From assembly GCA_964654185.1 (NCBI GenBank), contig CAZZIE010000001.1, positions 391-64,390 of the forward strand: a DNA stretch of 64,000 nt, written 5' to 3'. A model generated the notes under the pieces. That model ran no database searches. It worked only from the letters and a program-made list of their open reading frames with translations, and was not told the origin of the DNA. Positions 25,978 through 54,693 of this stretch are shown here, piece after piece. How positions within the stretch are numbered: position 1 is the first letter of the stretch; each line of letters starts with the position of its first letter. The stretch is from an uncultured Spirochaetaceae bacterium. Lineage in GTDB: Bacteria > Spirochaetota > Spirochaetia > DSM-27196 > PWMO01. A program made the translations under genes and the position numbers.

Positions 25978-26111
25978 GTCGAAATTCACAGTGAGAGGGC
26001 TCTCACGCCAGGTGGTATAGACGCCCGGCAGGTGGTCTGAACATCTGCCGGGTGTTCTGAACATCCGGCAGTGAGGAACCTCCCGGTTGATCGTCGATAA
26101 GGAGCGCAGAG

Positions 26112-29463: not shown

Positions 29464-29475
29464 GGAGGTGACCAC

Positions 29476-31037: not shown

Positions 31038-31814
31038 ATGCCCGTTACGCTTCCAGGCCAGGATTCGGCCGCACCCGCCGGGGCCGAGCGGTTCCCCGCC
31101 GACCGACGCGATCGCCCCTCTCCATCACGGCGGGGAAGCCGTCTGCCCGGGCTCATGCCCGCCCGGCGGCTGCGGCGTGCCGCACGCCCCCTCGCCCTGC
31201 TGTTTCCGGCCATCCCGGTTCTCACCGGCTGTGCCGCCGGCTTCGACGGCGCCCTCGGCGGCGCATTCGACGCCGCGCCCTTTGTCTATGAAGACCTGGC
31301 CGTCGTGCACGGGGCGGTTCCCGACTGTCACGAGCACCTTGGCCTCTACGTCTCCATCCGGAATACCTCGGCGAAGGCTTTCTCCGCCTTCTCGCACTCC
31401 TTCTATCTCTTCACCGAGGACGGGACGCCCCTCGGCACGGTTCAGACGCGCCGGGTTCGCGGTGAGGTGGAGGCATCCCTCCAACCCGGCGACGCCGAGG
31501 GCTACTGCACCTCCCTGGACTCGGTCTTTCACTTCCTTCCGGCTGAGACCACCGAAGTCCGGCAATACCGGATCGATGAAATTCGCTTCGACGACGGCGG
31601 CCGATGGCGCCCGGTCACCGCCTCCTACGCCTACCCCTACCCGGCGCGCGCGGAACAGGCCGGGGAGGCCGGGGCGGCGGCGCAGCACGCGGATGCCCCG
31701 CGGCCGGACCGGTCCGGCCGCGCAGATCCCCCGAGGCCGCGCCGGCTCGACCGAGCGGCACGCAGCTCAGCAGCCGCCCCGGCGGCCGCTCCCTTCCGGG
31801 AGGCCGCCCCATGA
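31038..31814 (+). CDS. hypothetical lipoprotein (first gene of the RHS operon)
   Basis: Strong AAGGAGG RBS 7 nt before ATG 31038. An Arg-rich n-region (ARRLRRAARP) is followed by LALLFPAIPVLTGC (lipobox). An alternative start is at 31155. The stop overlaps the next start (ATGA). Confidence 0.55.
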   Translation: MPVTLPGQDSAAPAGAERFPADRRDRPSPSRRGSRLPGLMPARRLRRAARPLALLFPAIPVLTGCAAGFDGALGGAFDAAPFVYEDLAVVHGAVPDCHEHLGLYVSIRNTSAKAFSAFSHSFYLFTEDGTPLGTVQTRRVRGEVEASLQPGDAEGYCTSLDSVFHFLPAETTEVRQYRIDEIRFDDGGRWRPVTASYAYPYPARAEQAGEAGAAAQHADAPRPDRSGRADPPRPRRLDRAARSSAAAPAAAPFREAAP

Positions 31815-34225
31815 GCCACCGGCCGCCGCGCAGCCCCGCGATCCCGGCGTCCATCGCCGTCGCCGCCGCTGTCTTTGCCGCCGTTCTCTCGGCCTGCGAC
31901 GCCCCCTTCGCGGCAAGGCTCCAGCCGACCGCGCCCGTCCGCCCACCTGTCACCGTCACCACTCGCGTCGAGCCGGCAAGCGCCGGGACCGTGACCGTAA
32001 CCGGTGCGGCCGCCCCCTACCGTCGCGGAGACCACCTGCAAGTCACCGCCCACCCGGCTGAGGGGTGGCGCCTCCTCGGCTGGACCACGGAGCTGGGTGC
32101 CGCCGGCGCGCAGAGCGCCGGTGCGGCGGATCCCGGCCCTCTGGGGGCCGCCCCCGCCGCGGCGAGCCCTGGCCCCGCCGCCGGGACCAGCCCCGGCCCT
32201 GCGGCCGCCCCCGCCGCGGCGAGCCCTGGCCCTGCGGCCAGCCCCAGTCCCGGCCCTGCTGCCGGCGAGCCCACCGCTGCGGCGGGCGCCGCCCCACGAA
32301 CCGCCGCGGGCAGCGCCGCGGCCGGCCCGGCCTCCCCGCCCGCTAACCCCCTCTCCCTGGTTCTGTCGGAGAGCGTCACCGTCATTGCGCGTTTCGGACC
32401 GGCTGCCTACGCCGTCACGACGGACGTCCTGGGGAACGGCACGGTTCAGGTCTCCGGTGACGGATGGCAGCCCGGGACGCCGGAGGGCAGCGCGGATCCC
32501 GACGGAACCGCCGCTCCCGGGGCTGAGATCACCTTCGAGGCGGTACCTGCCGCCGGAAACGGCTTCTCCCACTGGGAGGGGAGCGCCGCCGGCGCGGCCA
32601 ACCCCGCGACCCTGACGGTCGCCGAGCCCCTTGACCTCACCGCGGTCTTCTCGGCGGAACAGTTTGCCCTCTCGTACGAAGCGGTCGGGGAGGGGAGCAT
32701 TGCCGTCGAGGTTGTCGACGGCGCGGCCGGAGGTGATACCGAGGCCGGGAGCGCCGATCCGACCGAGGGTGTCGTCTATGGAAGCGAGGTCCGTCTCACT
32801 GCCGAACCCGCGCCGGGCTGGCGCTTCCTCCACTGGGGGGACGACCCGGCGGACGCCGCGAACCCGAAAACCCTGACCGTCACGGGCAGTCGGCACATCC
32901 GAGCCGTCTTCGCCGCCAACGAGTGGACCGTTCTCCTCTACATGAACGGCGACAACGAGCTCGAAGCCAATCTCCTGGAAGATGTCAACGAGCTCGAAGC
33001 GGTGGATCTCTCCGGAACCGGCGTCACCGTGGTGGCGCTGGTCGACCGCGCCGACGGGCACGCCACGAGCAACGGTGACTGGCGGGGCACCCGGCTCTAC
33101 CGCATTTCCTTCGATCCCGACGGCACCAATACCGCCCTGGTCTCTCATCGTCTCGCAAGCGCCCGGATGGGCCTGAGCGATACCGGCGACGACGAAGAGC
33201 TCAATCTGGGAAGCGCGGCAACGCTATCGGATTTCCTGGATTTCGCTGCGGCGGAGTTTCCGGCTGAGAACACCGCCCTCATCTTCTGGGGGCACGGCGG
33301 CGGCTACCGGGCTGCATCGGGAGCGCGTACAGCTGCCGGAAGATACGGTCACGGCCACACTGGCGCTGCGACATGGTCGATCCCGGGACCCCGCGGAAAG
33401 GCGCCACTCTCCACCGCAGGACACCGGGCGGTCACCGTCGACGACGGAAGCGGCGGGGACCACCTTCTCACGCCCGAGCTCGGGGGCGCCCTTGCCGGGC
33501 GCGATCTCGATGTCCTGGCCTTCGACCTCTGCTACGGGGCGCTCCTCGAAGTTGCGTATGAGGTGCGCACTTCTGCGGAGCTGTTCATTGCCTCCCAGGA
33601 CGTCGTCGGCGCCGACGGCTGGGAGTATGACCGCTTCCTCGATCGCTTCCTCCAGGGTCCGCGCGACCCGGCGGATTTCGCCGCCGCTGCAACGGACGTC
33701 TTCGAAGCGAGCCACGCCCAGGCGCACCGCGCCACGATCTCCGTCCTGGACCTGGCAGAGATCGATGGTGTCGCCTCCGCGCTGGACGACCTCTCGGTGG
33801 CACTGGTCGAGTGGATAGCTGCAGGCAGCGCCTCACAGCGCCGGGCAACGCTCCGCGACGGGATCTTCTCGCAGGTCGAGGATTTCTATGCGACCCCCGG
33901 AGACCTCAACATCGACCTGCGGGACCTCTCACGGTACGTCGCGTCGGATCTCGGCGCCGCTTCCGCGGAGGCGGCCGCCCTGGATGCGGCGGTGGCGCAG
34001 GCGGTGCTGTACTCCTGGGCCGGTCCGGGGAACCCCCGCGCAGGGGGACTGAGCGTACACTACGTTCCGCTCGACTCCCTGGGATATCCCGTCGTCCATG
34101 CGGACTCCTACTTCGCCGACCAGACCGCCACGCCACCGCTTTCCTTCGTTGGGGCCTCCGAGTGGGTGCCCAACCCGAGTACCGGGACGGGACTCCTCTA
34201 TCGGCTCTGGTACGAGGCGCTCTGA
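31811..34225 (+). CDS. lipoprotein with InlB-B-repeat-like modules and a C-terminal peptidase C11 (clostripain-fold) domain
   Basis: N-terminus AVFAAVLSAC (lipobox). Three repeats of the type V.V...G.G.V ... GW.F.GW are separated by Ala/Pro linkers. The C11-like core is EWTVLLYMNGDNELE, VVALVDRADGH, a His in FWGHGGG and a Cys in AFDLCYGA. GGGAGG RBS. The ORF-track start at 31604 is an overlap artefact. Confidence 0.75.
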   Translation: MSHRPPRSPAIPASIAVAAAVFAAVLSACDAPFAARLQPTAPVRPPVTVTTRVEPASAGTVTVTGAAAPYRRGDHLQVTAHPAEGWRLLGWTTELGAAGAQSAGAADPGPLGAAPAAASPGPAAGTSPGPAAAPAAASPGPAASPSPGPAAGEPTAAAGAAPRTAAGSAAAGPASPPANPLSLVLSESVTVIARFGPAAYAVTTDVLGNGTVQVSGDGWQPGTPEGSADPDGTAAPGAEITFEAVPAAGNGFSHWEGSAAGAANPATLTVAEPLDLTAVFSAEQFALSYEAVGEGSIAVEVVDGAAGGDTEAGSADPTEGVVYGSEVRLTAEPAPGWRFLHWGDDPADAANPKTLTVTGSRHIRAVFAANEWTVLLYMNGDNELEANLLEDVNELEAVDLSGTGVTVVALVDRADGHATSNGDWRGTRLYRISFDPDGTNTALVSHRLASARMGLSDTGDDEELNLGSAATLSDFLDFAAAEFPAENTALIFWGHGGGYRAASGARTAAGRYGHGHTGAATWSIPGPRGKAPLSTAGHRAVTVDDGSGGDHLLTPELGGALAGRDLDVLAFDLCYGALLEVAYEVRTSAELFIASQDVVGADGWEYDRFLDRFLQGPRDPADFAAAATDVFEASHAQAHRATISVLDLAEIDGVASALDDLSVALVEWIAAGSASQRRATLRDGIFSQVEDFYATPGDLNIDLRDLSRYVASDLGAASAEAAALDAAVAQAVLYSWAGPGNPRAGGLSVHYVPLDSLGYPVVHADSYFADQTATPPLSFVGASEWVPNPSTGTGLLYRLWYEAL

Positions 34226-37200
34226 TGGGCCGGCTAGGTCTGGTAACGGCGATCTGGGGCGTCGGGATGTGTGCGATTGTCGCCGTTGAGCGCGCGGATG
34301 CCTCCACCTGCACGAAGCCGGTGGTGTGCTGGGACGGCTCCTGCGTCTACTTCAGCGATCAGTGCCCGCCCGAGCCGCCTCCCGATGATGGCCCCTCGGA
34401 TGGGGATGGAGACGGCATCCCGGATGGTGCCGACAACTGCCCGGGCACGGCAAACGCCGGACAGGCCGACTCGGACGGAGATGGCACCGGTGACGCCTGC
34501 GACTCGACTCCTCATGGCGGATCCGGAGGCGGAGGATCCGGCGGAGGGGGCTCCGGTGGAGGAGCGGGTGGTAGTGACGAGTTCGACGGCGTCGTAAACA
34601 GCCGCGGGGAGATCGACGACGCCCTCGATCACGCCGACGGGAACCTGGACGAGAGCGACGACTACTTCGACATTCCGTCCTCTCTGGACACCGCCGTGCC
34701 GGGTGCCAAAGGTGATCTCGAGGACATAACCGATCCCGCCGACGGCTCCCTCTCCAAAGTTCAGAATGAGGCTGATGATCTCGACAGCGCCGTGACGGCC
34801 GGCGAGAAGGCCCTCGAGGAGTTCGACGATCCGGTGGGTTCAGCGGACAAGCTTTCCGAATCCCACGTTGAGATAACGAGTGTGGACGTCCCGGCTCTCG
34901 AGTCTGCGGCGGGAGAGCTCGCGCTGACGGCGGGCATCGGTGGGGGCGGCGCCGTGGCGAACCACGGAGCCGCGGCGGACTACATTGCGGCAGGCGTTCA
35001 CTATGAGAGCGTCTCCGGCGCTGCCGAGGAGGTCGCAGAGGCCGCCGCCGAATCACGCGAGATTCTGGCGACCATGACGGAGGGTGCGACCGCAGCCACC
35101 GACGCGCTCGTCGATACCGAACGCACCTACGCCGCCGAGCGAGGCGGCGATCCCGTCGCCCTTGCCACGGGCACCTTCTTCACGCAGGAGACCGATCTCG
35201 CCGTGGCAACTCCGGCGCAGGTGCTCCTCCGGTTGCCCGAGGAGCTGCCCGGCCTGGGGGTCCTCGCCGCGCGGACCCCCGGTGCGGACAACTCCCTCGC
35301 GGGTGCTGCGGCGGCCGCTGCGGGGGACGCTACGCTGATCTTCCGCCGATACTACAACAGCTCCGCAGGGTCCGGCCACGCCGGGGGTACGGTCGCCATC
35401 GACGGCGTCACCGGTGCTGCCGGCAGCACCGGAACTCTGGGGCCGGGGTGGCGTCACTCCTTTCAGAGTCGCCTCTTCATTGGATACGACGGTGTCACCG
35501 CCGCCGAGGTGCGGGAGCTCCAGGAGCGCTCCTCCCGGGCGGCGACCCGGGTCCGGGAGGCACGAGACACCCTGGAGGATGCGCGGCGGAGTGCCGCATC
35601 CGCCGTCGAGGGGTACCGGGACTCCCTGGAGCTTGCCGAGGCGCTCGCGGTGGGGTGGCGGGACCTGAGAGATGCAGCTCTCGCCGCCGCCGAGGAAGGG
35701 GCGGAACTGCGGCGCGCCGCCGGGGAAGCGGATGAGCAGGTTGCGCCGTCGCACGCCGCGTCTGCGGAGGAGCTGGTGGCGCGAGCAGACGAGATCGAAG
35801 CGAGCCTTGCGGAGCTGGATGACCGTTTCAGCGGGCTCATCCGGCGCGCCGACAGAGCCGAGCGGAACGCCGAGAGTGCGCGCAGCTCCTACCAGGCGGT
35901 CATCGACTTTGTCGATGGGCTTCTCGTTGAGTGGAACTCCGACCAGGACGCCCGCGCCTCCGCGACCGCCGGAGTGACGACCGCCCTGGATCAGCGCGAC
36001 CGCGCGGCGGAGCATGAGGAGTCGCTGCGGAATCGAGTGAGCTCCATCGCGGACGCCCTGGCGAAGGTAGAGGACCTCGGCACCGACGAGCTTGACCGCG
36101 TCTCGGCCCTGCGCGACCGAACTGAGCACGTCCTCTCGGTAACGGGCGTCTTCCCGGATGATCCCGCCGCCTACGCGCCGTATGTGCGAGCGCAGGCGGG
36201 ATACCGCGAAGCCGTCGAGTTGCGAGACGGCCTCCTGCCGACCGGACTTGCCGCGGCGGAGCAGCGGCTCCGGGCAATCGAGACGGAGGGGCCCGTCATC
36301 ATCGGCACAATGGAGGAGAGCCGGGAGGTCACCGAGGCCGTCGCGGAGGACGCAGGAAACCGCAGCGACTACGCGGTCTCGGCGGCGCGTCGCAACGGTG
36401 CGCTCCCGTCCGGGGCGGACCCCGGCGCAACAGGGATGGGCACCTTCACCGTGATCGGCGCCGACGGTGCGCCCAGGCTCTTCCGGACCGGTGCGGAGCC
36501 CGCCTTTGCCGGGCCGACGAGTATCGGTGACGGCCTCGTCCACTACTACCGGCGCGACGTCACGGCGCACCCCGACGCACCCGGCGATTACGGACGCCTC
36601 ATCGTCCGGCGCGACGGGAGCTACATCCTGGAGGAGCGCAACGGCACCGAGCATCGGTACGATGCCTACGGGCGGCTGACAGGCGTTACCGCCCGGGGCG
36701 GTGCAGCGGTGACCCTGGAGTACGAGGGCCTCGGCGAAGGGGGACGTTTGCGCCGCGTCGTCGACGACGCCGGAAGGACGCTTGCCCTGCAGTACGACCG
36801 CGACCGTCTCGTCGAGGTCGCCGGGCCCGACGGCGCCGCGGTTCGCTACGGGTACGACGGCCAGGGGCGGCTTCACTCCGTAACTGATCCGAGTGGCCGC
36901 ACTCGGCACTATCGCTACCGGGGGCACCTTCTCACCTTCATCGGGACACCGCGACACGTAGCGGCCAGCGCCGAAGCGCCGTCGGGCGGTGGCGCCGCCG
37001 CGCCGGATCATGCCGACGGACCGGGCCGGCGCTACAACTACGAGCGGCGCGACGGGCGCGACGTCGTGACATGGACGGAGGATGAGGCGGGCCACCGTGA
37101 GCTCTTCAGCTACCATCCCGGTGAGAGCCCTTACGGCGCGGGCTACACCAAGCACACGGGCTACCACGACTGGACGGAAGCCGGCGCCGCCGTGACCACG

Positions 37201-40200
37201 AGGACCCACTATGACACCAACCTGCGGACCGTCCGTCGGGAGTGGCTGAACTCCGACGGCGTCGTTGCCGCCTGGGAGTCCTTTGTGCACGACGCGGCTG
37301 GCAACGTCGTTCGGCGCGAAGCGGGTGGCGACGGCGTCCGCCGCGTATGGCGCTTCGCCTACGACGGTGACGGCAATCTCGTGGCCCGGATCGATCCGGA
37401 CGGCGTCGAAGAGAGCTGGGAGTACGATGCCGACGGCAATGTGACCGCCCACACCAATGGCGCAGGCGAAACTACGCGATTGACCTGCGACGCTTCAGGG
37501 AGGCTCACCGGCGCGCACTACCCGACCGGCGCCGCCTTTCGGTACCGCTACGACACCGAGGGAAATCTCACGGAGATTCGGCGTCTCCTGAACGGGCGGT
37601 GGCACGCGACGCGGCTCGTCTATGGTCGCCATGGGTACCCGACCTCCGTGGAGTACCCGGATGGAGCCACGGCCGCACTTCGCCACGACGCGTATGGACG
37701 TCCGGCCGCCCATATCTCGCGCCTCGGACTGGCAACGGAGGACCGTCGGGGGCCGGCGGGGCGACTTCTGGAGCGCTCATACGCAGACGGGAGCGCCGAA
37801 GTCTTTCGGTACGACGCCGCCGGAAACCTGACGGAGACGAAGGATCGCCTCGGCCACGTCACGCGTTACGAGCACGACCCGCGTGGACTCGTCACCAGTG
37901 TGTTTCGGGAACGCATTGTCGATGTGGAGACCGGGGCGAATACCGTGGACGCAAGGACCTACCGATACCGTGCGGACGGCCGCCTGGCCGAACGGCGGGC
38001 GGGCCGCCGGGAAGGGGGCGAGTCGGCGCAGTGGCGGTACGACTACGACTATCGGGGCCGTCTCATCCGGGAGGAGGAAACCACCACGGGAACCCTCACG
38101 CGCTACGCCTACGACGCAGCGGGGAATCTGGTCGAACGCGCAACCGAGCCGACCGGTGTCGCGCCCGCCGGCGCGGGGACGGGTGCGGCGGCGGGTGCGG
38201 GGGCGGGCGCGGCGGGTGTCCCGGCCACGGCCCGGACCTTCGTCACGAAGTACGGCTATTCACCGGCCGGCCGCCTGGAGTGGACCGAAAACGGTGCAGG
38301 CGAGCGGACCCGCTTCGACCGCGACGGAGCCGGGGAGGTGACCGCCGCAATTGATCCGGCAGGACACCGGACACGGATTCGCCGGGACACTGCCGGGCGC
38401 ACCATCCTCACGACCGCGGTGCCCGGGGCGCCGCCGGAGGTGCGGCGCTTCGACGAGGCGGGGCATCTCATCGAGCTCAGCGACCCCGACGGCAGCACCT
38501 GGCGCTACGAGTACGACCCCGCCGGGCGCATCCGCCGCGAGAGCGCCCCGGACGGCGGCGAGACCACCTACACCTACCGCCATCTCACCCCCGGCATGGA
38601 GGTCACTCGCACCGACCCTCTGGGCAACGACTGGGTCCTGCGATTCGACGCCGCCGGTCGCCGCATCGGGGCAGTCGACCCGACCGGCGCCGAGACCAGC
38701 TTCGAGCGGGACGCAGCCGGCAGAATCACTACAGTGATCGATGCTCACGGCAACCGCCGCAGCTACGTCTACGACGCTGTCGGCAACGTCCTTGCCCGGA
38801 TGGATGCGTACGGTAACGGCCGCACCTTCACCTACGACGCGCTGGGCCACCCCGCCTCCGTCACGCTCCCGACTGGTGAGACGACGCGCTTCGGCTACGA
38901 CGCACTGGGCCGGCGCCGCTGGATCGAAGAACCCCTCGGCAACCGCACGCACTTCACCTACGACGTGGCGGGAAACCTCCTGGCCACGGAAACCCCGATG
39001 GGTCTGACCCGGCGCTTCACCTACGACGCTGCCGGACGCGCCGTTGCGCGGATCGAGCCGGACGGTGCGACCTACCGGTACGAGTATGACGCGCGGGGGC
39101 GCACCACGGGTGAGATCGATCCGACCGGAAGCGTTCGTCGGTACGAGTACGAGGAGAACGCCCGCGGCAACCTCATCGCGGAGGTCAACCGCCTGGGCGC
39201 GCGAAGGACCATCTCCTACGGTGCCGCCGGACGCATCGACTCAATGACTGACTTCAACGGCGTTCTCCATGACTTCGACTACGATCCCGCAGGACGGTTG
39301 ATCCGAGAGGTGGCCGAGGGGGAGGTGGTCCGCGCCTTCGAGTACGACGTGCGGGGAGATCTGGTGCGCGCGGCCAGCCCGGCCGCCGCGCTGGAGTTCG
39401 ACTACGACGAGCGGGGGCTTCTGGTCGAGAGCCGGGACCGGGACGCGGAGGTCGCCGTCGCCTACGAGTACGATGCCGCAGGGCGCCGCACCCGCGTCCT
39501 CACCGAGGGCTACGAGATCGCAACCTCCTACGGCGCCATGGGGGAGGTGCGGGAGGTCGCCTTCGACGACGGGTCGGCCTTCGGCGCAGGGGAGGGGCGG
39601 ATCCGCCTGGAGTACGACGAAAGCCTCCGCGAGCGCGTGCGCCGTTTTGCCGGGAGCCTGGTCGCCGAGCGCCACTATGATGAGGCGGGGCGCCTCGCCG
39701 GAGTGGTTCATCGAGGGGGCGGTGGCGTCGCCGGTGAGGTCCTGGACGCGGAGGCCTACGTCTACGATCGGGACGGGCGGCGCATCTACACGGTGGACGA
39801 GGCTGGTGGCCTCACCGCGTACCGGTACGACACCGCGGGTCGTCTGGCTGCGGCGCTCTATCCTCACGAGGATGGTGTGGTGGCGTCTCACCTTCGACAG
39901 CTCAAGGCAGTCGGCATGGTGTCGCCGCCGGCGCAGGCGGACCGGCTTGGTACCATTGGCGCGGCCACCGGTTCGCGCGGCGGCTCGCGCGGCAGCTCCG
40001 TCGCGGTTGCGGGACGGATCACCATTCCCTCTGAAGAGAGGGATCTCATCCGGGAGGTTACGGAGCAGGTCCTCCCTCGGCGCAAGGGCGGCACGTTCCT
40101 CTCTCGGGAGATGTGGGGCGAGAGCTTCACGTACGACGAGCGGGGCAACCTCACCGGGGTGGCCACACCGCTCGGGACGATCGGGTTTGCCTACGACGCT

Positions 40201-41664
40201 GCGGACCGGCAGGTTCGCGCCGGAGCCCTCTCCGTCGCGTACGATGCAGCCGGAAACGTCACGCGTCGCGCCGTTGGAGCGGCCGCTCTGGAGTACGACT
40301 ACGACGCCCGCCACCGGATGACCCGCATCCACGGGCGCACCCCGGAGGGCCGCGATATCGATCTGCGCTACGGCTACGACGCCCTGGACCGCCGGTCGTA
40401 TCGCCTCGATGTGCCTTCCGGTGACCGTACGGAGTCCGCGACGGCGGGGACGGGCGGACCGGCCGCGACGGCGGCGCCCGGGACGGCAACGCTGGAGAGA
40501 GCGGTCTACCAGGGCTTCTCCTTCATGCGTCTGGCTACGCTGGAGGCGCATGGAGTCGGCAGCGTGCAGGGTGATTTTTCCGGCGTGGATGCGCCGAGCC
40601 TTCCCGGCCGGCTCCCGCGACCGAAGCCGCGGCGCGGCGCCGGTCCGCGATCCCGCGTCGACGCAGGGCAGGGCGCCGCAGTGTTGACCCGACTGGAGAT
40701 GGCGGCGGTGGCCGTTTCCGTGCAGCAGGTTCCCGCCGCTGTGGTATCGCCCCGGCAGGTCAGCCACTTCGGGGTGGATGTGCTCGGGAGCGTAACCCTT
40801 CGCGTGACGGCGCACGCGAGTGCCGCAGGCAACCGTGCGGCCGGGTCGACCGGTGCAATCGTGGAGGATCTGGCGTACCGCGCCTTCGGGGCGGTACGGG
40901 CCGGTGACGTTCGCGGTGCCATACCCTTCGGCTACACCGGCAAGGTCGTGGACGTCGCAACGGCGGTCTACGATTACGGCCTGCGAGACTACGCGCCCAG
41001 TACCGGCCGATTCACCACGGTGGACCCTCTACGGGCCGGCACGAACTGGTACGCCTACGTTCACAACGATCCGATCAATCTCATCGACAGGTTCGGCCTG
41101 GAGGCCTCCGTCCCCGGCAACCCGGGTCCCGGCGGCTTTCCCCTCGATCCTTCGGTCCAGGTCTTTCGCAGCGACGGTAACATCGACCAGCTGGCATTCG
41201 ACCAACGCTACGGCTTCGGCACCATCGCCGGCACACAATCCTGTCAGTCCGTCGCGGTCTGCAATCTCTACGCCCAGGAAACCCCCGGCGGCATGACGGT
41301 CGAGCAACTCGACGTCGTGGTTTCGGTCAGCCTCTCCTCCGGCCACCTGGAAGAGGAAGGCGGCTCCGTCACCGACTTTTCCGGCCTGAGCCGAACCATT
41401 GCAACGGAGCTCGATCGCGACGACTATTATGAATACGTGTACCCGGCACCGGACTACGAGCGCCTAACAATGTCTGAACACGACTTCGAACAATCCGACG
41501 CGGCCGCGGGGGTGGTGCAACTCTACAACCCTCAATATGACGTGAATCACTTTGTGACCCGGAGTCGCGATCGCACATACGATCCTCTACCCTCGTCTCG
41601 ACCGACAGCTTCGGGGTATGTCGTAGAAGAGGTTCGTCCACTTCAACTTCTGGATCTTCACTAG
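34225..41664 (+). CDS. RHS/YD-repeat polymorphic toxin with signal peptide, TSP3-like repeats, coiled-coil insertion and an unassigned C-terminal domain
   Basis: ATG at 34225 overlaps the upstream stop (TGATG). The hydrophobic N-terminus ends in ADAS. DGDGDGIPDGADNCPG...DSDGDGTGDACD is a thrombospondin-type-3-like Ca-binding repeat. GDPVALATGTFF is a plug motif. Dozens of YD repeats follow (YxYDxxGRL type). The RHS core end is DPLRAGTNWYAYVHNDPINLIDRFGL, followed by about 187 aa of lower-GC sequence. Confidence 0.9.
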   Translation: MGRLGLVTAIWGVGMCAIVAVERADASTCTKPVVCWDGSCVYFSDQCPPEPPPDDGPSDGDGDGIPDGADNCPGTANAGQADSDGDGTGDACDSTPHGGSGGGGSGGGGSGGGAGGSDEFDGVVNSRGEIDDALDHADGNLDESDDYFDIPSSLDTAVPGAKGDLEDITDPADGSLSKVQNEADDLDSAVTAGEKALEEFDDPVGSADKLSESHVEITSVDVPALESAAGELALTAGIGGGGAVANHGAAADYIAAGVHYESVSGAAEEVAEAAAESREILATMTEGATAATDALVDTERTYAAERGGDPVALATGTFFTQETDLAVATPAQVLLRLPEELPGLGVLAARTPGADNSLAGAAAAAAGDATLIFRRYYNSSAGSGHAGGTVAIDGVTGAAGSTGTLGPGWRHSFQSRLFIGYDGVTAAEVRELQERSSRAATRVREARDTLEDARRSAASAVEGYRDSLELAEALAVGWRDLRDAALAAAEEGAELRRAAGEADEQVAPSHAASAEELVARADEIEASLAELDDRFSGLIRRADRAERNAESARSSYQAVIDFVDGLLVEWNSDQDARASATAGVTTALDQRDRAAEHEESLRNRVSSIADALAKVEDLGTDELDRVSALRDRTEHVLSVTGVFPDDPAAYAPYVRAQAGYREAVELRDGLLPTGLAAAEQRLRAIETEGPVIIGTMEESREVTEAVAEDAGNRSDYAVSAARRNGALPSGADPGATGMGTFTVIGADGAPRLFRTGAEPAFAGPTSIGDGLVHYYRRDVTAHPDAPGDYGRLIVRRDGSYILEERNGTEHRYDAYGRLTGVTARGGAAVTLEYEGLGEGGRLRRVVDDAGRTLALQYDRDRLVEVAGPDGAAVRYGYDGQGRLHSVTDPSGRTRHYRYRGHLLTFIGTPRHVAASAEAPSGGGAAAPDHADGPGRRYNYERRDGRDVVTWTEDEAGHRELFSYHPGESPYGAGYTKHTGYHDWTEAGAAVTTRTHYDTNLRTVRREWLNSDGVVAAWESFVHDAAGNVVRREAGGDGVRRVWRFAYDGDGNLVARIDPDGVEESWEYDADGNVTAHTNGAGETTRLTCDASGRLTGAHYPTGAAFRYRYDTEGNLTEIRRLLNGRWHATRLVYGRHGYPTSVEYPDGATAALRHDAYGRPAAHISRLGLATEDRRGPAGRLLERSYADGSAEVFRYDAAGNLTETKDRLGHVTRYEHDPRGLVTSVFRERIVDVETGANTVDARTYRYRADGRLAERRAGRREGGESAQWRYDYDYRGRLIREEETTTGTLTRYAYDAAGNLVERATEPTGVAPAGAGTGAAAGAGAGAAGVPATARTFVTKYGYSPAGRLEWTENGAGERTRFDRDGAGEVTAAIDPAGHRTRIRRDTAGRTILTTAVPGAPPEVRRFDEAGHLIELSDPDGSTWRYEYDPAGRIRRESAPDGGETTYTYRHLTPGMEVTRTDPLGNDWVLRFDAAGRRIGAVDPTGAETSFERDAAGRITTVIDAHGNRRSYVYDAVGNVLARMDAYGNGRTFTYDALGHPASVTLPTGETTRFGYDALGRRRWIEEPLGNRTHFTYDVAGNLLATETPMGLTRRFTYDAAGRAVARIEPDGATYRYEYDARGRTTGEIDPTGSVRRYEYEENARGNLIAEVNRLGARRTISYGAAGRIDSMTDFNGVLHDFDYDPAGRLIREVAEGEVVRAFEYDVRGDLVRAASPAAALEFDYDERGLLVESRDRDAEVAVAYEYDAAGRRTRVLTEGYEIATSYGAMGEVREVAFDDGSAFGAGEGRIRLEYDESLRERVRRFAGSLVAERHYDEAGRLAGVVHRGGGGVAGEVLDAEAYVYDRDGRRIYTVDEAGGLTAYRYDTAGRLAAALYPHEDGVVASHLRQLKAVGMVSPPAQADRLGTIGAATGSRGGSRGSSVAVAGRITIPSEERDLIREVTEQVLPRRKGGTFLSREMWGESFTYDERGNLTGVATPLGTIGFAYDAADRQVRAGALSVAYDAAGNVTRRAVGAAALEYDYDARHRMTRIHGRTPEGRDIDLRYGYDALDRRSYRLDVPSGDRTESATAGTGGPAATAAPGTATLERAVYQGFSFMRLATLEAHGVGSVQGDFSGVDAPSLPGRLPRPKPRRGAGPRSRVDAGQGAAVLTRLEMAAVAVSVQQVPAAVVSPRQVSHFGVDVLGSVTLRVTAHASAAGNRAAGSTGAIVEDLAYRAFGAVRAGDVRGAIPFGYTGKVVDVATAVYDYGLRDYAPSTGRFTTVDPLRAGTNWYAYVHNDPINLIDRFGLEASVPGNPGPGGFPLDPSVQVFRSDGNIDQLAFDQRYGFGTIAGTQSCQSVAVCNLYAQETPGGMTVEQLDVVVSVSLSSGHLEEEGGSVTDFSGLSRTIATELDRDDYYEYVYPAPDYERLTMSEHDFEQSDAAAGVVQLYNPQYDVNHFVTRSRDRTYDPLPSSRPTASGYVVEEVRPLQLLDLH

Positions 41665-41700
41665 GCATAGCTGTCAACGCGATGGCGGGAGTAAACAGTC

Positions 41701-42603
41701 ATGGATCTGGTAATGCGAATCGTGCTGTTGGGTCTCTTTGCTTCAGTTGTCACGGCAGCAACTGGAGCGAAGGAACTCCATCTTGTGCCTGTCGACGGCG
41801 GGCGCCTCATCATGGGATCTGAGGAGGGAGATGACAACCCACTACACGAAGTTGTTCTTTCAAGCTTCATGATGGCAGAGCGAGAGATCACGGTCGGTGA
41901 GTTTCGAGAGTTCACCGTCGCCGAGGAGATACCGTTTCGATGGACGTCGTATAACTTCACGCAGTACGTGGGCCGACCCGCAGGATATGTGATCCCCGAC
42001 GATCGCGCCATGTATTTCGTTATGTGGTATGAAGCGGTTTGGTATGCGAATTATCGGAGCGAGTTGGAAGGGCTTGAGAAGGCCTACGGGTTCGACGAAC
42101 AAGCTTTGCGCGACTATTTGTACGACTTTCGCGAGGGTCGCGACCCTCCCAGCATAGAGTGGGACCGCAGTGCAAACGGGTACCGTTTGCCAACAGAGGC
42201 AGAATGGGAGTTTGCTGCGACCGACCGAGGGCAAGCTCGTACTGTCACTGATGAGTTGCTCCTACGCAGGTCGTGGGTTCGTGAGAACGCCGACGGTAAG
42301 GTGCATCCTGTGAAGGCGAAGGTACCGACCGAACTGGGGTTGTACGACATGTTGGGTAACGTATCGGAATGGTGCTGGGACTACTACGACTCCAGGTACT
42401 ATGACCGGTCGCCGGTTCGCGACCCCACCGGTCCAGCAACGGGGGAGGAATTGTCGGTCTTTCCTGGGCGCAAAGACATTCGGGTATTCCGCGGTTGTTC
42501 TTGGCGAACTCCGCTCAATTTCTGCGGACCTCACGAAAGAATGGCAACTATTGCACCGAATCGAGGCACCATCGGCATCCGCCTTGTTCGGAATGCGGAA
42601 TGA
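41701..42603 (+). CDS. secreted FGE-sulfatase (SUMF1/C-type-lectin-like) fold protein, in the immunity-gene position
   Basis: 300 aa with an N-terminal signal/TM segment (IVLLGLFASVVTAATGA). FGE-sulfatase family blocks are present (GYRLPTEAEWEFAA, GLYDMLGNVSEWCWDYY, VFRGCSW, GIRLVRN). GC is about 50-55%, clearly below the flanks. Confidence 0.8.
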   Translation: MDLVMRIVLLGLFASVVTAATGAKELHLVPVDGGRLIMGSEEGDDNPLHEVVLSSFMMAEREITVGEFREFTVAEEIPFRWTSYNFTQYVGRPAGYVIPDDRAMYFVMWYEAVWYANYRSELEGLEKAYGFDEQALRDYLYDFREGRDPPSIEWDRSANGYRLPTEAEWEFAATDRGQARTVTDELLLRRSWVRENADGKVHPVKAKVPTELGLYDMLGNVSEWCWDYYDSRYYDRSPVRDPTGPATGEELSVFPGRKDIRVFRGCSWRTPLNFCGPHERMATIAPNRGTIGIRLVRNAE

Positions 42604-46492: not shown

Positions 46493-46778
46493 GCCCTGGC
46501 GGTTCGAGCTGTACGTTGCGGGTACCTCGCCGAAGCAGCAGCTCGCACTCCGAAATCTCACGGACATCTGTGATGCCGCACTCGGTACGGACTACACCAT
46601 CGACGTCATTGATATTCTCGAGCATCCCGGATTGAGCAGGGAACGGCAGATCCTCGCGACACCGACGGTGATCCGGATCACTCCATTGCCGGAGCGACGG
46701 ATTGTCGGAGATCTCACCCAGCGTGATGCGGTGTACCGCGGTCTGGAGCTGCCCCGGCTGCAGGAGGATCGCGTCTAG
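46464..46778 (+). CDS. kaiB: KaiB-like thioredoxin-fold protein
   Basis: About 104 aa from GTG 46464 (GGAGG 6 nt upstream), overlapping the kaiC 3' end. It has the KaiB signature ELYVAG.SP.S..A..NL..IC ... IDVIDILEHP....E.QILATPT. Confidence 0.8.
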   Translation: MAKTTGSRSEPWRFELYVAGTSPKQQLALRNLTDICDAALGTDYTIDVIDILEHPGLSRERQILATPTVIRITPLPERRIVGDLTQRDAVYRGLELPRLQEDRV

Positions 46779-46791
46779 TAAAGCGGATTAC

Positions 46792-48772: not shown

Positions 48773-51409
48773 ATGACTGCAATGATCTTCCTGTCATACG
48801 TACTCGACATGGATGCCGGCCTTCCTGTGCTGCTCTCCATCTTCACGCGGAGCCTTCCTTTCGGTGCGCTCGTACCGGCGGTGGGGGTGGACGTAGCCGA
48901 GCGGCGTCTCCCGACACCGTGGCTCCGGGCAGCCGCCGGCGCCGCGGTGGTCCACCCGCTGCTCCTGCTCGCTGTGGCCAACGGCGCCGTGGCTCTCCTC
49001 GCTGCCCTCGGCGCAGCCATGGGCGCCGCTCTCGGCGCCGCAACCTGCTACGCCGTGCTTCGCCTTGCCGGCGCCCTTTCCGGCATCGGTCGGGGAGACC
49101 TGCGGCTGGGTACGGTTCTCGGCCTGGGAACGGGCTTCCCCTCCGCGTTCTTCGCCCTCGCCGCGGCCACCGCCGCGTGCGGCGTCTTCATGGCGGCACG
49201 CCGTCGGCGGGTCACGGCGTTCGGCCCCTTTCTGGTCGGCGCCTACGCCGCCGCCGTCGCCTTGGTCGCTCCGGCACCCCTGGCCGCAGCGCCGGGATCC
49301 GCGCCGACGGAGCCTCTCGGCCCGGAGTCGGTCATCCCGGAAATGGAGTTTCGCAATGAAGCGGTGGCGTCCGTTCTCCTGGTCCTCGGGCACGCTGCCG
49401 GCAGGAGCGTTCTGCCCGACGCTACCGTCACCGGCACCGCCTCCTACTACTTCCGGGAGCGCAGCTTCGACGCCGCTCTGGCGGCCTTCGCCGAGGCGCA
49501 GGACCTCTTCGTGGAGGATCGCGACGGGACGCTTCACGTCTCCCGGGTGTACGCGGCGCGACACGCCGACGGCGCGCTGACCGTGCGCGCCCGGGAGGTG
49601 CCTCTGGGCACGCTCCTCGATCGCATTGACCGGGTTACGGGGGTGCCGGTGACCCACGCGGGCGTTGCGGGCATGCGCGGAAGCGTTCATGCAGAGCAGC
49701 TCCCGGTGGAGGCGATTCTGGAGGCGATCGCGGCGCCCCACCCGGACCTGGCGGTGCGTGAGGTCGGGCCGGGCTACGTGGTTGCGCCGCCGGAGCGCCG
49801 CGAGCTGGAAGCGTCGAAAGTGCAGGTCGGTGTGGGACCCGAAGGCCTGGATGTGGTGATCCGCGACGCCGACTTCGCCCGGGTGTTGGAGTCACTCGCG
49901 GAAGCGAGCGGGATGCAGTACTTGAGCCTTCTGCGGCGCTCCCCGGTCATCGCCGATCTTGCGCTTTCCGGGGTCGAGCTTCCGGAGGTGGTGCGGGCAC
50001 TCGCCTTCGCCGCAGAGGCGACTGCGGTGAAGCGGGAAGGGCGCTGGCTCTTTCTTCCGGGTCGTACGGCAACGCCGCAGGATCTTCTGGCCGTGACGCT
50101 GATTGTTCATCTGGAGCACGTGCCGGTGCGGCAGGTTCTGGAGCAGGTGCCCCGGCAGCACGCCGCCTCTGCGAGCCTTGCCGCCGTTCCGGGGGAGAAC
50201 GCCGTCGCAGTGACCGGACTGCCCGACGAGCTGGAACCGGTCCTGGCGTACCTGGCAATCATGGACCGGGAGCCCGCCGGGATTGCGTATCACCGCTTCG
50301 ATCTGAGCTACGCCGATCCCGCGGAGATCCTTGCCGCGCTGCCGGCGGGAATACCCCGGGAGCACGCCGTCGTGCTCGAAGAGACAAATGCCCTCATGCT
50401 CCGGGTGACCGACTCGCAGCGGGAACGGGCCGCGCGGTTCATTGCCGACATGGACGTGAGCCCCCGGGCGGTAGCGGTGAGACTGCAGCACACCGAGGCC
50501 GCCGTAATCATCGACTCAATGCCGGATACGATTCCTCTCCGGTACGTGCACCGCACCGGGGATGCGAAGCTGCTGCTCTTCACCGGGCCTCCTGAGGTCG
50601 AGGCGCGCCTGCGGGAGCTTCTGGCCGCGGTGGATGCGCCGGCGCCGCAGATCCGCTACGACCTCTTCATTGTGCAGTACCAGGAGGGTAAGAGCGTCGA
50701 CTACCGGCTGTCGATCGAGAGCGTCGAGGTGCGCCCCTTCGACACGGCCATCCTGCTCGGCCGCCTGGGCGAGTTGCTCTCCCTCAGCGCCGACGTCATC
50801 TCGCTCTTCGGGCACCGCTTCGCCGTCTCTCTGAGCAGCGCCCTCAGCAACAACGAGGCGCAGGTCCTTGCCGACACGTCGGTGACGACGCTCTCCGGCA
50901 CGCCGGCCTCATTCCGCAACACCGAGACCTATCGCTACCGAGATGTTCCGCCGGCAACCGACGAAGACGCCGGGCCGGTCGGTGTGACGAGGGAGATCAC
51001 CTCAGGACTTTTTATCGATATCGATGGGGACGTTGTCGGCCCCGACGAGGTGGCTCTTTCGATAGCCGCCACGGTCTCCAAGCGCGGCCGCGACGTCGGT
51101 GACACCTCGGGGAACCCGCCGCCGACGGCGGAGCGCGTGGTGACCAGCACGCTCCGGGCGCGGTCCGGGCGGCCCATCGTGGTGGGAAGCTTCCTCCTCC
51201 GCGACCGCACCCGGAGCGTCCGGCGCATCCCGATTCTGGGGCACATCCCGGTCCTGGGCTGGCTCTTTCGCGGCGTGCAGTCATCCAGCGAGGAGTCGGA
51301 GCTGGTGGTCTACCTGGTGCCTCACGTTCTCACACCGCCGGCGCAGCTATCGACGGAGGAGCAGCTCCGGGCGATTCACGCGGCGTGGAAGGCGGGAGCG
51401 CCGCGGTGA
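48773..51409 (+). CDS. single ORF joining an A24 prepilin-peptidase-like membrane domain (about aa 1-170) to a secretin (GspD/PilQ-like)
   Basis: N-terminal part: VGVDVAERRLP (first Asp motif), GIGRGDLRLG (GxGDxK/R-L motif) and AFGPFLVGAY (C-terminal motif). Then come N0/N1-like periplasmic repeats (MEFRNEAVASVLLVLGHAAG...). The C-terminal secretin core is SNNEAQVLADTSVTTLSGTPASF ... RIPILGHIPVLGWLFRG ... ELVVYLVPHVL. There is no in-frame stop between the parts. Confidence 0.75.
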   Translation: MTAMIFLSYVLDMDAGLPVLLSIFTRSLPFGALVPAVGVDVAERRLPTPWLRAAAGAAVVHPLLLLAVANGAVALLAALGAAMGAALGAATCYAVLRLAGALSGIGRGDLRLGTVLGLGTGFPSAFFALAAATAACGVFMAARRRRVTAFGPFLVGAYAAAVALVAPAPLAAAPGSAPTEPLGPESVIPEMEFRNEAVASVLLVLGHAAGRSVLPDATVTGTASYYFRERSFDAALAAFAEAQDLFVEDRDGTLHVSRVYAARHADGALTVRAREVPLGTLLDRIDRVTGVPVTHAGVAGMRGSVHAEQLPVEAILEAIAAPHPDLAVREVGPGYVVAPPERRELEASKVQVGVGPEGLDVVIRDADFARVLESLAEASGMQYLSLLRRSPVIADLALSGVELPEVVRALAFAAEATAVKREGRWLFLPGRTATPQDLLAVTLIVHLEHVPVRQVLEQVPRQHAASASLAAVPGENAVAVTGLPDELEPVLAYLAIMDREPAGIAYHRFDLSYADPAEILAALPAGIPREHAVVLEETNALMLRVTDSQRERAARFIADMDVSPRAVAVRLQHTEAAVIIDSMPDTIPLRYVHRTGDAKLLLFTGPPEVEARLRELLAAVDAPAPQIRYDLFIVQYQEGKSVDYRLSIESVEVRPFDTAILLGRLGELLSLSADVISLFGHRFAVSLSSALSNNEAQVLADTSVTTLSGTPASFRNTETYRYRDVPPATDEDAGPVGVTREITSGLFIDIDGDVVGPDEVALSIAATVSKRGRDVGDTSGNPPPTAERVVTSTLRARSGRPIVVGSFLLRDRTRSVRRIPILGHIPVLGWLFRGVQSSSEESELVVYLVPHVLTPPAQLSTEEQLRAIHAAWKAGAPR

Positions 51410-52959
51410 CCGGCACGGACGACCGGCCGCGGCGTCTCGCTGAGTTCGGCGAGCTTCCCGGTGAGGAGGAGCAGTATCCCCTGAGTTTCTGCGAACGCCA
51501 CCGGGCGGTGCTGCTCCGGGAGGGAACGCCGGGGGCGGACCCGCCGGGGAAGGGCCTGCCGGGGAAGGGCCCGCCGGGGGCGGGCGCGCTGGTCGGCGTG
51601 GCGGCGCCGGTTCCGTCCTACGTGGAGGAGCGGTTGCGACGACTCCACGGCGGGCCGGTAACCGTCGTTCCCCTGGCACCGCAGGATGTCTACCAGTTCC
51701 TGGCGGAGCGGCGGCTTCATCGGGAGGACGCGCGCCGGCAGCGCCGGGTGGCAAGGCGGAGTGCAGCCGTGCGCGACGGTGCGGGCCCGGGTCCGCGCTC
51801 CCTGGGATTGACTGCGAATGATGCGAGAGGCGGAGAAGTCACTGTCGGAGGCGCCGGTGAGGCGTTTCTTCAGGGCATTCTCGACGAGGCGGTGCGTACC
51901 GGAGCTTCGGATGCCCACCTCATGGCCGGTTCCGCCGGCGTCTCTCTTCGCTTTCGCCGGGAGGGCGCTCTCGGAGAGGCGCGGGCGGTGCCCCGGGAGC
52001 TCACGGCGCGTCTCGTCGCTCGGCTGAAGGTGCGGATTCGAGGAAACCCCGGACAGCGCCGTAAGCCCCAGGAAGGGCGCTTTGGCTTCACCGTGCGAGG
52101 CACCGTCTACGAGGTTCGCGCCTCCATTCTGCCTGGCCTCCACGGAGAGAGTGTGTCCCTGCGCTTCCTGCGGACCTTCAAAGGTGGCATCTCCCTGGAC
52201 GGCCTCGGCTTCCCCGGTCGGATCGTCACGCTCCTGAACGGGGTCGCAGAGCGTACCGACGGTCTGTTCCTGGTAACGGGCCCGACAGGAAGCGGGAAGA
52301 CCACCACTCTCCACGCCGTTGCCCGGCTCCTGTGCCGGCGCGACCGTCGCGTCGTCACCATTGAGGATCCCATTGAGTACGAGCTCCCCGAGGCGGTGCA
52401 GCTGCAGACGAACGCGCGATTGCACCTCACCTTTGACCTTCTGCTGACCAAGGCGCTGAGACACGATCCGGACGTGCTCCTTCTCGGCGAGATTCGGGAT
52501 GCCGAGACCGCGGCCCTGGCGGTGCGCAGCGCCCTTACCGGTCATCTGGTCCTTGCAACCATGCACACCGGCACGGTGTTCACCGGCATCCTGCGATTGC
52601 GCAACCTCGGCGCGACATCCGATGAGGTCGCCTCGGCCCTCTGCGGCGTACTCTCTCAGCGCTTGGTTCGTCGTGTGGGGATCTCCCCGGTGGGTGCCTC
52701 CCCGGTGGGTGCCTCCCCGGTAGGTGTTCCCCCGGTGGGTGACACGCGACAGGCGTCCGCCGACGGGCGGATTCCCATCTGTGAGGCCCTCATTGACCCG
52801 ACGGACCCGACGAATTTCGCACCGGCAGGACGATTCGTTGAAGCAGTGGGACGGGATTGGCTGTACCTCGATATGAAGGACGATGCCAGGCGCCTCGTCT
52901 CAGCCGGTGTAACCACCTGGGAAGACGTGGCGCGTGTTGCGCGAATTGGAGGCGTGTGA
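51406..52959 (+). CDS. gspE: type II/IV secretion ATPase (GspE/PilB family)
   Basis: Walker A GPTGSGKTTT, Asp box, Walker B LLLGEIRD, His box ATMHTG. GTG at 51406 overlaps the secretin stop (GTGA); an alternative GTG is at 51385. A (SPVGA)x4 insertion is encoded by 15-bp repeats at 52684-52743. Confidence 0.85.
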   Translation: MTGTDDRPRRLAEFGELPGEEEQYPLSFCERHRAVLLREGTPGADPPGKGLPGKGPPGAGALVGVAAPVPSYVEERLRRLHGGPVTVVPLAPQDVYQFLAERRLHREDARRQRRVARRSAAVRDGAGPGPRSLGLTANDARGGEVTVGGAGEAFLQGILDEAVRTGASDAHLMAGSAGVSLRFRREGALGEARAVPRELTARLVARLKVRIRGNPGQRRKPQEGRFGFTVRGTVYEVRASILPGLHGESVSLRFLRTFKGGISLDGLGFPGRIVTLLNGVAERTDGLFLVTGPTGSGKTTTLHAVARLLCRRDRRVVTIEDPIEYELPEAVQLQTNARLHLTFDLLLTKALRHDPDVLLLGEIRDAETAALAVRSALTGHLVLATMHTGTVFTGILRLRNLGATSDEVASALCGVLSQRLVRRVGISPVGASPVGASPVGVPPVGDTRQASADGRIPICEALIDPTDPTNFAPAGRFVEAVGRDWLYLDMKDDARRLVSAGVTTWEDVARVARIGGV

Positions 52960-54642: not shown

Positions 54643-54693
54643 CGGAGTGACGGCCCGGAACGCAGCCCCGCCGCGACAACCCGCGCCGCAACG

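Follow-up and report, generated by a model that had tools for sequence, protein, structure and literature searches.

Organization of the locus

This analysis concerns a four-gene locus at positions 31038–42603 of a 64 kb stretch of DNA (hereafter the window, meaning the whole stretch that was analysed; GC content ~65%) belonging to a metagenome-assembled genome of the phylum Spirochaetota. All four genes are read in the same direction and encode, in order, a small lipoprotein (gene 1), a lipoprotein of the C11 or clostripain peptidase family (gene 2), an RHS polymorphic toxin (gene 3) and an FGE-fold protein (gene 4), each with a Sec or lipoprotein signal (Table 1). A cluster resembling a type II secretion system (T2SS) lies 7 kb downstream. 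The order gene 1–C11–RHS recurs in other spirochaetes, and the locus is considered here as the candidate toxin arm of an interbacterial competition system.

The first three genes are joined by overlapping codons. At ATGA (31811–31814), the stop codon of gene 1 (TGA, 31812–14) overlaps the ATG of gene 2 at 31811, and at TGATG (34223–34227), the stop codon of gene 2 (34223–25) overlaps the ATG of gene 3 at 34225. A Shine–Dalgarno-like motif stands 5–9 nt 5′ of each of the four starts (AAGGAGG at 31026–32, GGGAGG at 31798–803, GAGG at 34214–17 and GGGAG before 41701), and a scan for promoters and terminators returned sites no commoner than in shuffled sequence. A start of gene 3 at GTG 33811 was ruled out, as homologues begin at the signal peptide.

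A preliminary description of this DNA had presented positions 31038–42603 as a three-gene operon with overlapping stop and start codons. The three genes and their junctions are borne out by the sequence and by domain searches against Pfam and NCBIfam, whereas the fourth gene, which lies inside the same range, had gone undescribed; the nature of the toxin and the FGE-like immunity gene had thus both been missed.

Table 1. Coordinates of the toxin locus, the downstream secretion cluster and the upstream pilus genes in the window.
Feature	Position	Strand	Basis
Gene 1, small lipoprotein, 258 aa	31038..31814	+	lipobox LTGC; clade homologues
Gene 2, C11 (clostripain-family) lipoprotein, 804 aa	31811..34225	+	Pfam; clostripain 9cip alignment
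Catalytic His codon, residue 495 in FWGHGGG	33293..33295	+	clostripain alignment
Catalytic Cys codon, residue 574 in FDLCYGA	33530..33532	+	clostripain alignment
Gene 3, RHS/YD-repeat polymorphic toxin with Sec signal peptide, 2479 aa	34225..41664	+	Pfam, NCBIfam
RHS N-terminus: signal peptide residues 1–26, Cys-rich TCTKPVVCWDGSCVYFSDQCPP, thrombospondin type 3-like Asp-rich repeats	34225..34503	+	
RHS shell: DUF6531 plug, helical insertion, YD repeats, Rhs-associated core	35143..41100	+	
C-terminal toxin domain, ~187 aa, predicted papain-like, Gln-Cys-His-Asp arrangement	41101..41661	+	phmmer, AlphaFold2
Gene 4, FGE-sulfatase-fold protein with signal peptide, 300 aa	41701..42603	+	PF03781 E 1e-35
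T2SS-like cluster: secretin, GspE, GspF, GspG, X, lipoprotein Y	48773..57052	+	Pfam, NCBIfam
Protein X, 562 aa	54694-56382	+	
Lipoprotein Y (Y245), CarboxypepD_reg-like	56315-57052	+	
Probable further pilus subunit	25480-25977		
PapD_N chaperone	26112-26852		
Usher	26839-29463		
SCPU (spore-coat-protein-U type) subunit	29476-30399		

Conservation of the gene 1–C11–RHS arrangement in spirochaetes

Homologous loci were examined by tblastn, blastp, hmmsearch and Pfam scans. The C11 domain alone served as the homology query, because full-length gene 2 gave only 7 matches, its low-complexity linker swamping the search. Scanning genomes with a 16-sequence alignment of the C11 clade (an alignment of 38 sequences proved too diverse) recovered 76 loci, one per species, comprising 27 full-length spirochaete members of the clade (26–59% identity) and 49 C11 loci from other phyla. 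The 27 spirochaete loci, the window and loci L001 and L002 together form the clade set of 30, drawn from genomes whose GC content ranges from 34% to 68%.

A signal-peptide RHS gene follows the C11 gene on the same strand, at a distance of 0–60 nt, in 20 of the 30 loci, a count that includes RHS genes of which only the N-terminus is visible where a contig ends early. The junctions are often overlapping codons, across very divergent genomes. RHS, gene 1 and T2SS-like genes were all absent from the vicinity of C11 in the other phyla (0/49). Among the close relatives, L001 (74% identity in C11) and L002 (58%) both carry gene 1, C11 and an RHS N-terminus with overlapping junctions, and L079 is syntenic over usher, SnoaL, gene 1, C11, RHS, FGE, DUF72 and KaiC genes, with overlaps of 4–8 nt. 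Since the gene order recurs in so many species, the arrangement goes far beyond chance. The preliminary description had named lack of conservation of the C11–RHS pairing in relatives as a refuting result; that result was not obtained, the pairing being found far outside the close relatives, in two thirds of the spirochaete loci and at identities down to 26%.

Gene 1 is the most constant neighbour of C11. Profile hidden Markov model searches located a homologue directly upstream in 28 of the 30 clade loci, and these homologues are always lipoproteins with a conserved lipobox and a beta-rich core of ~120 aa. The copy in the window has its lipobox, LTGC, at residues 62–65 (31221–31232) and a core of the same size and character, with no match in Pfam or NCBIfam. 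Its AlphaFold2 model is all-beta with seven strands, at low confidence (predicted local distance difference test (pLDDT) score 50; shallow alignment), and a weak DUF5780 match in L026 is consistent with this fold.

Two side observations concern gene 1. Its low-complexity C-terminal insertion of 45 aa (31668–31805) was found in this copy only; relatives with 93% and 82% identity to the query core lack the insertion and end in the same terminal residues. A chimeric query combining the gene 1 core with the toxin domain of gene 3 returned three close gene 1 relatives and zero toxin matches. Among the clade members, the gene 1–C11 pairing fails only in L018 and L019 (10001–12870), from two Spirochaetia genomes; there, C11 paralogues stand in tandem, and gene 1, RHS and a T2SS-like cluster are all missing from the vicinity.

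A T2SS-like cluster accompanies the gene 1–C11 pair

The downstream cluster of the window matches the Pfam families for secretin (PF00263/PF03958), T2SSE (PF00437), T2SSF (PF00482) and GspG (PF08334). GspG scores 124.8 bits against TIGR01710, for which the equivalog cut-off is 88.85, and the secretin scores under the GspD equivalog cut-off. Protein X (X562) and lipoprotein Y (Y245) have no assignable family in Pfam or NCBIfam, and no Peptidase_A24 was found among the window open reading frames (ORFs) scanned; for these reasons the cluster is called T2SS-like.

A homologous cluster directly adjoins the gene 1–C11 pair in 16 other clade loci, in two configurations. In the co-directional set (L026 of Treponema sp. 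JC4, L024, L030, L072, L010, L012 and L015), the genes run secretin, GspE, GspF, pseudopilins, X, Y, gene 1, C11 and RHS, an order confirmed by Pfam for JC4, in which the set amounts to ~11 genes in roughly 15 kb (NZ_AJGU01000002.1, ~143–164 kb). In the divergent set (L005–8, L011, L013, L020, L022 and L059), the secretin gene is next to gene 1 on its upstream side and is read from the other strand. Two contigs beyond the 30, read from precomputed Pfam labels, show the same two patterns: L083 has Secretin, T2SSE, T2SSF, T2SSG, further genes, a CarboxypepD_reg lipoprotein, gene 1, C11 and RHS, and L084 has a divergent T2SS-like cluster with gene 1 and C11 and no RHS.

Counterparts of Y were also noted at L015 4386–4892, L083 6845–7471 and L084 2278–2868, the last with TPR in addition, and the T2SS-like clusters likewise carry an unassignable protein X of 400–560 aa. 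X and Y may possibly be a pilotin or a substitute for GspC/L/M. Because the unusual lipoprotein Y occurs in both, the cluster in the window appears to be of the same kind as those that adjoin C11. The link to a T2SS, which had been offered as pure inference when the locus was first described, has thereby gained gene-neighbourhood support. It is from this conserved gene neighbourhood that we infer that RHS, C11 and gene 1 may be substrates or components of the T2SS-like apparatus.

The C11 lipoprotein and the fate of its catalytic dyad

Gene 2 encodes a lipobox, LSAC, at residues 26–29 (31886–31897), three Flg_new_2 stretches (divergent InlB B-repeats; ~31949–32911, E 5e-23) and a C11 domain at 32918–34222. 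A Pro/Ala/Gly-rich low-complexity linker (32096–32356) splits the first InlB-B-like repeat. The C11 domain matches Peptidase_C11 (PF03415) with E 1.5e-36 and 127.1 bits against a cut-off of 25.8, and clostripain (PDB 9cip) with E 3.9e-17, and it remains below the clostripain equivalog TIGR02806 (62 bits, cut-off 550). The closest named relatives are annotated ‘clostripain-related cysteine peptidase [Spirochaetota bacterium]’. The HGGG and FDLC motifs of gene 2 align with the HGGG and FDAC motifs of 9cip, which carry His and Cys, so that the dyad reported in the preliminary description is indeed intact. The Asp two residues before the Cys is presumably the S1 specificity residue, as in clostripain, and an Arg/Lys-rich loop lies between His and Cys.

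The search with the C11 domain recovered 58 clade homologues. The lipobox is conserved throughout the clade, the presumed S1 Asp is invariant in all 38 aligned members, and the C-terminal region (EDFYxTPGDLNIDL ... GLLYRLWYE) is strongly conserved. His, Cys and the presumed S1 Asp are all kept in 23 of the 30 clade members, that of the window included. The remaining seven have lost both His and Cys, by replacement with Pro and Ala (L010, L012 and L014), Asn and Ser (L025) or Glu and Ser (L020, L022 and L059), and four of the seven still adjoin an RHS gene. Several further database homologues likewise lack the dyad, and the C11 protein of L083 (P0028) has the Pro/Ala substitutions and still adjoins RHS. 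Taken with L083, the dyad-less set (n=8) retains the gene 1 partner in every case and the RHS neighbour in five.

Because the dyad has been lost in seven clade members, four of them beside RHS, proteolysis is not the sole conserved role of C11. Even dyad-less members keep the presumed S1 Asp and the C-terminal region, and for this reason the conserved property of the family appears to be binding, with proteolysis predicted to be retained in most members, including that of the window. This bears on the two roles that had been suggested for the peptidase at the outset: as a universal releasing or activating protease of RHS it is contradicted by the members without a dyad, whereas the alternative of a tether or adaptor gains weight from their persistence next to RHS.

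The RHS protein and its delivery signals

The RHS shell of gene 3 opens with the DUF6531 plug region (GGDPVALATG) and contains 18 stretches of RHS_repeat (PF05593, E 2.9e-118) and 12 of TIGR01643. It closes with the Rhs-associated core (TIGR03696, residues 2218–2292, 66.5 bits against a cut-off of 32.5), whose last residues, 2282–2292 (41068–41100), are DPINLIDRFGL. That sequence had been pointed to as the self-cleavage motif of the protein; it is present, but the equivalent of the aspartyl autoprotease motif DPxGL is DRFGL and not the DPINL part. The motif here reads NDPINLIDRFGL, with Arg in place of Pro, and cleavage at it is predicted. At the N-terminus, the Cys-rich motif is also conserved in L001, L002 and L003, and the thrombospondin-like repeats give a weak match to TSP_3 (E 4e-4). 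The C-terminal domains of the RHS proteins differ among homologous loci.

A probably helical insertion of ~330 aa, rich in Ala, Arg and Glu (35515–36504, residues ~430–760), separates the DUF6531 ‘GDPV’ start from the first YD repeats. Confined to the group formed by the window, L001, L003 and L004, it makes the RHS protein of the window ~500 aa longer than its relatives.

No Pfam match to PAAR, VgrG-binding or adaptor domains or to an SpvB/TcB beta-propeller was found in gene 3, and Pfam scans of the substantial ORFs detected no PAAR, VgrG, Hcp or other type VI secretion system (T6SS) genes, no toxin complex (Tc) genes and no CdiB genes in the window. The earlier account of a Sec-type N-terminus, with no T6SS, Tc or contact-dependent inhibition (CDI) partner in view, accordingly stands.

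A probable papain-like toxin domain paired with a predicted FGE-fold immunity protein

The 187 residues that follow DRFGL had no match among Pfam, NCBIfam or PDB sequences, and a profile search of PDB sequences matched a segment of the Rhs core and not the toxin domain. An exhaustive phmmer search recovered 36 cluster representatives in which the domain is always C-terminal and usually directly follows the Rhs-associated core. Cys50 and His152 are invariant in this family and Gln32, Asn57 and Asp163 nearly so; in the window, the Cys lies in TQSCQSV (41233–41253) and the His in DVNHFVT (41539–41559). In the AlphaFold2 model (pLDDT 92), the Cys stands at the N-terminal end of a helix and the His in a strand, an arrangement that points to a papain-like fold. 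The second-ranked Foldseek match, itself non-significant, is a C39 peptidase domain (PCAT1; TM-score 0.38).

The same domain was observed behind double-glycine bacteriocin leaders (…EVNGG) in a few cases, among them proteins P0089 and P0096, the latter also with LysM, and the module therefore appears common to RHS toxins and to bacteriocin-type export. The fusions to LysM and to double-glycine leaders indicate an extracytoplasmic target, probably the cell wall or envelope of neighbouring cells.

An FGE-like gene follows this toxin family not only in L079 but also in L081 and L082, whose contexts are unrelated to that of the window. In L025 and in the first cassette of L082, FGE+SH3_3 proteins come after a different papain-like C-terminal family, and all the FGE-like proteins found here carry signal peptides. 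The GC content falls from ~0.71 in the RHS core to 0.53–0.58 exactly over the toxin and FGE genes (41100–42600), a signature of a horizontally exchanged toxin–immunity cassette. Given the recurrent pairing, the signal peptides and a toxin that would act, most likely, outside the cytoplasm, we read gene 4 as the predicted cognate periplasmic immunity protein.

Elsewhere, the genes downstream of RHS vary with the toxin type, and those examined have signal peptides; the FGE-like gene was for this reason ruled out as a conserved component of the system. Two further contexts were recorded. L082 (1–11392) is an array of orphan RHS C-terminal toxin and immunity cassettes, with two cassettes followed by an FGE-like gene; a BrnT/BrnA pair lies within it, and a PDDEXK_3 gene flanks it on either side. 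In Treponema, RHS proteins with NlpC/P60-like C-termini (YDCAD…GHT) occur at L024 (17067–17132) and L026 (17341–17368). No immunity gene lies downstream of either; L024 continues with UvrD, and L026 with a convergent ParB.

Proposed function and alternative explanations

Our judgement is evenly balanced on whether the locus is the toxin arm of a spirochaete-specific interbacterial competition system that would work as follows. Sec would carry all four products across the inner membrane. The FGE-fold product of gene 4 would stay in the periplasm and neutralize the papain-like Cys–His toxin, which would be encapsulated in the RHS cage and released later. The T2SS-like machine would carry the RHS protein across the outer membrane, and the gene 1 and C11 lipoproteins would pair obligately at the outer membrane or on the cell surface and dock the RHS protein. 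Where the dyad is intact, C11 would probably cut the RHS protein after Arg or Lys, within its long N-terminal stretch, which is acidic and helical, and cleavage would release or activate the cage; where it has been lost, C11 would keep a binding or adaptor role only. Gene identities, conserved gene order, dyad loss in some lineages and the pairing of toxin with immunity gene are established by the comparisons made here; the route of export, the binding and cleavage of RHS by C11 and the target of the toxin are inferred.

A more specific proposal is put forward tentatively, and we hold it to be rather doubtful: the gene 1 and C11 lipoproteins may be dedicated parts of a spirochaete-specific, T2SS-derived machine that exports and matures RHS cages, in which the C11 fold would receive the cargo and, in most lineages, would also be the protease by which the cage is opened or released. 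If true, Sec-dependent RHS toxins of two-membrane bacteria would have a way across the outer membrane that has not been described before.

Several points weigh against a competition system of this design. Ten species keep gene 1 and C11, mostly beside the T2SS-like cluster, without RHS; the pair must therefore have an RHS-independent function and is tied more tightly to the cluster than to RHS. The tightest associations of C11 are accordingly with gene 1 and the T2SS-like cluster, and a functional tie between C11 and RHS is a prediction. The cluster is not adjacent to the pair in the window, L001, L004, L079, L021 and L025; in the sub-lineage of the window (with L001, L004 and L079), the toxin arm has moved next to SnoaL. 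Seven of the 30 C11 proteins are predicted to be catalytically dead, four of these beside RHS, so proteolysis seems dispensable in some lineages, and no C11 cleavage site could be identified in RHS. A cage of ~270 kDa would be very large for a secretin channel, and the toxin model found nothing significant in the PDB with Foldseek (best E 0.024).

Some of these observations would be accommodated if gene 1, C11 and RHS merely shared the T2SS-like system as cargo, C11 being a surface protease with a nutritional or other target that neither acts on RHS nor binds it. The gene 1–C11 pair does stand beside the T2SS-like cluster without RHS in L007, L008, L013, L020, L022, L059 and L084, and T2SS operons often adjoin their substrate genes, lipoproteins such as PulA included. 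Loss of His and Cys with retention of the partner gene, the presumed S1 Asp and the RHS neighbour, however, is not what one would expect of a nutritional protease, nor does mere co-export sit easily with C11–RHS junctions of 0–60 nt, often with overlapping codons, in very divergent genomes. Bacteroides C11 lipoproteins do act as general surface proteases (PMC11169675). On balance we consider simple sharing of the exporter unlikely.

Quite unlikely, in our view, is an arrangement in which gene 1 and the C11-fold lipoprotein are accessories of the T2SS-derived apparatus, such as a pilotin, gate or cargo receptor, the peptidase fold has been put to a new use, any surviving peptidase activity is incidental to RHS maturation and RHS processes itself with its own aspartyl protease. 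The near-obligate gene 1–C11 pairing (28/30), the position of the pair next to the secretin gene in divergent arrangements and the loss of the dyad in 7/30 while the C-terminal region stays strongly conserved would all suit such accessories; RHS has its own Rhs_assc_core, and MafA offers a precedent for a lipoprotein acting as exporter (PMC7738311). Retention of His, Cys and the presumed S1 Asp in 23/30 nevertheless implies selection for catalysis, and the variable number of InlB-B-like repeats, like the Pro/Ala-rich linker, is more in keeping with an extended enzyme at the surface than with part of a ring.

Delivery by a machine whose genes lie beyond the window, for example a T6SS or a different contact-dependent apparatus, with the lipoproteins and the T2SS-like cluster as irrelevant neighbours, is very improbable: although the window shows only 64 kb of a 96-kb contig, the RHS protein has a Sec signal peptide and no PAAR or VgrG-binding domains, the immunity proteins carry signal peptides, and T6SS genes occur at none of the 30 clade loci (0/30), against 16 with the T2SS-like cluster.

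Neighbouring genes

A chaperone–usher pilus cluster of the spore-coat-protein-U type (25480–30399) immediately precedes the toxin operon. L079 shows the same synteny, and absence of the cluster from L001 and from the Treponema loci rules it out as part of the system. The other upstream neighbours in the window are a sigma-54 response regulator and a divergent SnoaL gene, and the downstream neighbours are DUF72, KaiC, histidine kinase and nucleoside hydrolase genes. The KaiC homologue and the adjacent PAS/HisKA_3 histidine kinase (44771–47772) stand between the toxin operon and the T2SS-like cluster in a region that is syntenic in L079, which also has KaiB; these genes are probably unrelated to the toxin system.

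Comparison with known systems

No description of this conserved arrangement was found in the literature on clostripain or C11 in connection with Rhs, polymorphic toxins or Treponema. The preliminary view that a dedicated caspase-fold peptidase is without precedent was nonetheless too strong, as partial precedents exist (PMC8406203, PMC11169675, PMC3482391, PMC7738311). The locus bears on two steps that call for explanation, namely how Sec-dependent RHS toxins cross the outer membrane and how a sealed cage opens without a T6SS or TcA, and it names candidates for both in the T2SS-like apparatus, the C11 lipoprotein and its small partner. The full cluster is present in a cultured isolate, Treponema sp. 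JC4, and these hypotheses are therefore directly testable.

The nearest parallel for the peptidase is fragipain (Fpn), which, with related C11 surface lipoproteins of Bacteroidales, activates the toxins BFT, Fab1, CDCL and BSAP-1 (PMC8406203, PMC11169675). In both cases a C11 lipoprotein of clan CD acts, or in the present case would act, in trans on a secreted, Sec-dependent antibacterial protoxin with cognate immunity. In Bacteroides, however, the protease gene is unlinked to the toxin genes and has many substrates, whereas here C11 lies within the toxin operon, has a small lipoprotein partner and would act on an RHS cage; moreover, some orthologues appear catalytically dead, and cleavage is a prediction. 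The present loci would thus add to the C11-dependent toxin maturation of Bacteroides a form encoded within an operon, in a different phylum, and document lineages in which the protease became a pseudoenzyme. Caspase-like processing domains also occur inside polymorphic toxins, inactive copies having been proposed as peptide binders (Zhang et al. 2012, PMC3482391). These likewise tie a clan CD fold to toxin release but form part of the toxin polypeptide, whereas here the fold belongs to a separate C11-family lipoprotein.

For the gene order, the MafA–MafB–MafI system of Neisseria is comparable: the gene of its polymorphic toxin, which has a Sec signal, is preceded by that of an outer-membrane lipoprotein and followed by that of an immunity protein (PMC3482391; PMC7738311), and the upstream lipoprotein MafA is needed to move the Sec toxin MafB across the outer membrane (PMC7738311). 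The Maf system differs in that its lipoprotein is no C11 peptidase, its toxin is no RHS protein and a T2SS-like cluster plays no part; the comparison is one of analogy alone.

Sec-dependent (‘T2SS-class’) RHS/YD toxins are themselves known from WapA of Bacillus and BCN-A of Xanthomonas (PMC3482391; PMC7259588), and gspG-linked Rhs families for which T2SS-dependent export is predicted have been described in Xanthomonas and Ralstonia (bioRxiv 10.1101/2025.05.08.652813). They share with the present system a signal-peptide RHS cage, a polymorphic C-terminal toxin, a downstream immunity gene and the lack of a T6SS, and the Xanthomonas and Ralstonia families are likewise linked to T2SS genes in the genome. 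A conserved pair of C11 and small lipoprotein has not been reported for WapA, BCN-A or the gspG-linked families.

The predicted immunity protein, finally, recalls Tsi3, the FGE-like immunity protein to the T6SS toxin Tse3 of Acinetobacter baumannii (bioRxiv 10.1101/2021.05.21.445229), which has in common with gene 4 an FGE-sulfatase fold, a gene directly downstream of an antibacterial toxin and a non-enzymatic role in immunity, in gene 4 a predicted one. The kinship with Tsi3 is known as a shared Pfam domain, and the toxin here is the papain-like C-terminus of a Sec-exported RHS protein and not T6SS cargo; RHS-borne papain-like toxins would accordingly join the toxin types paired with FGE-fold immunity proteins. 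Collectively, each element of the locus has a partial precedent, and the locus is less unprecedented than first held, better supported and more testable.

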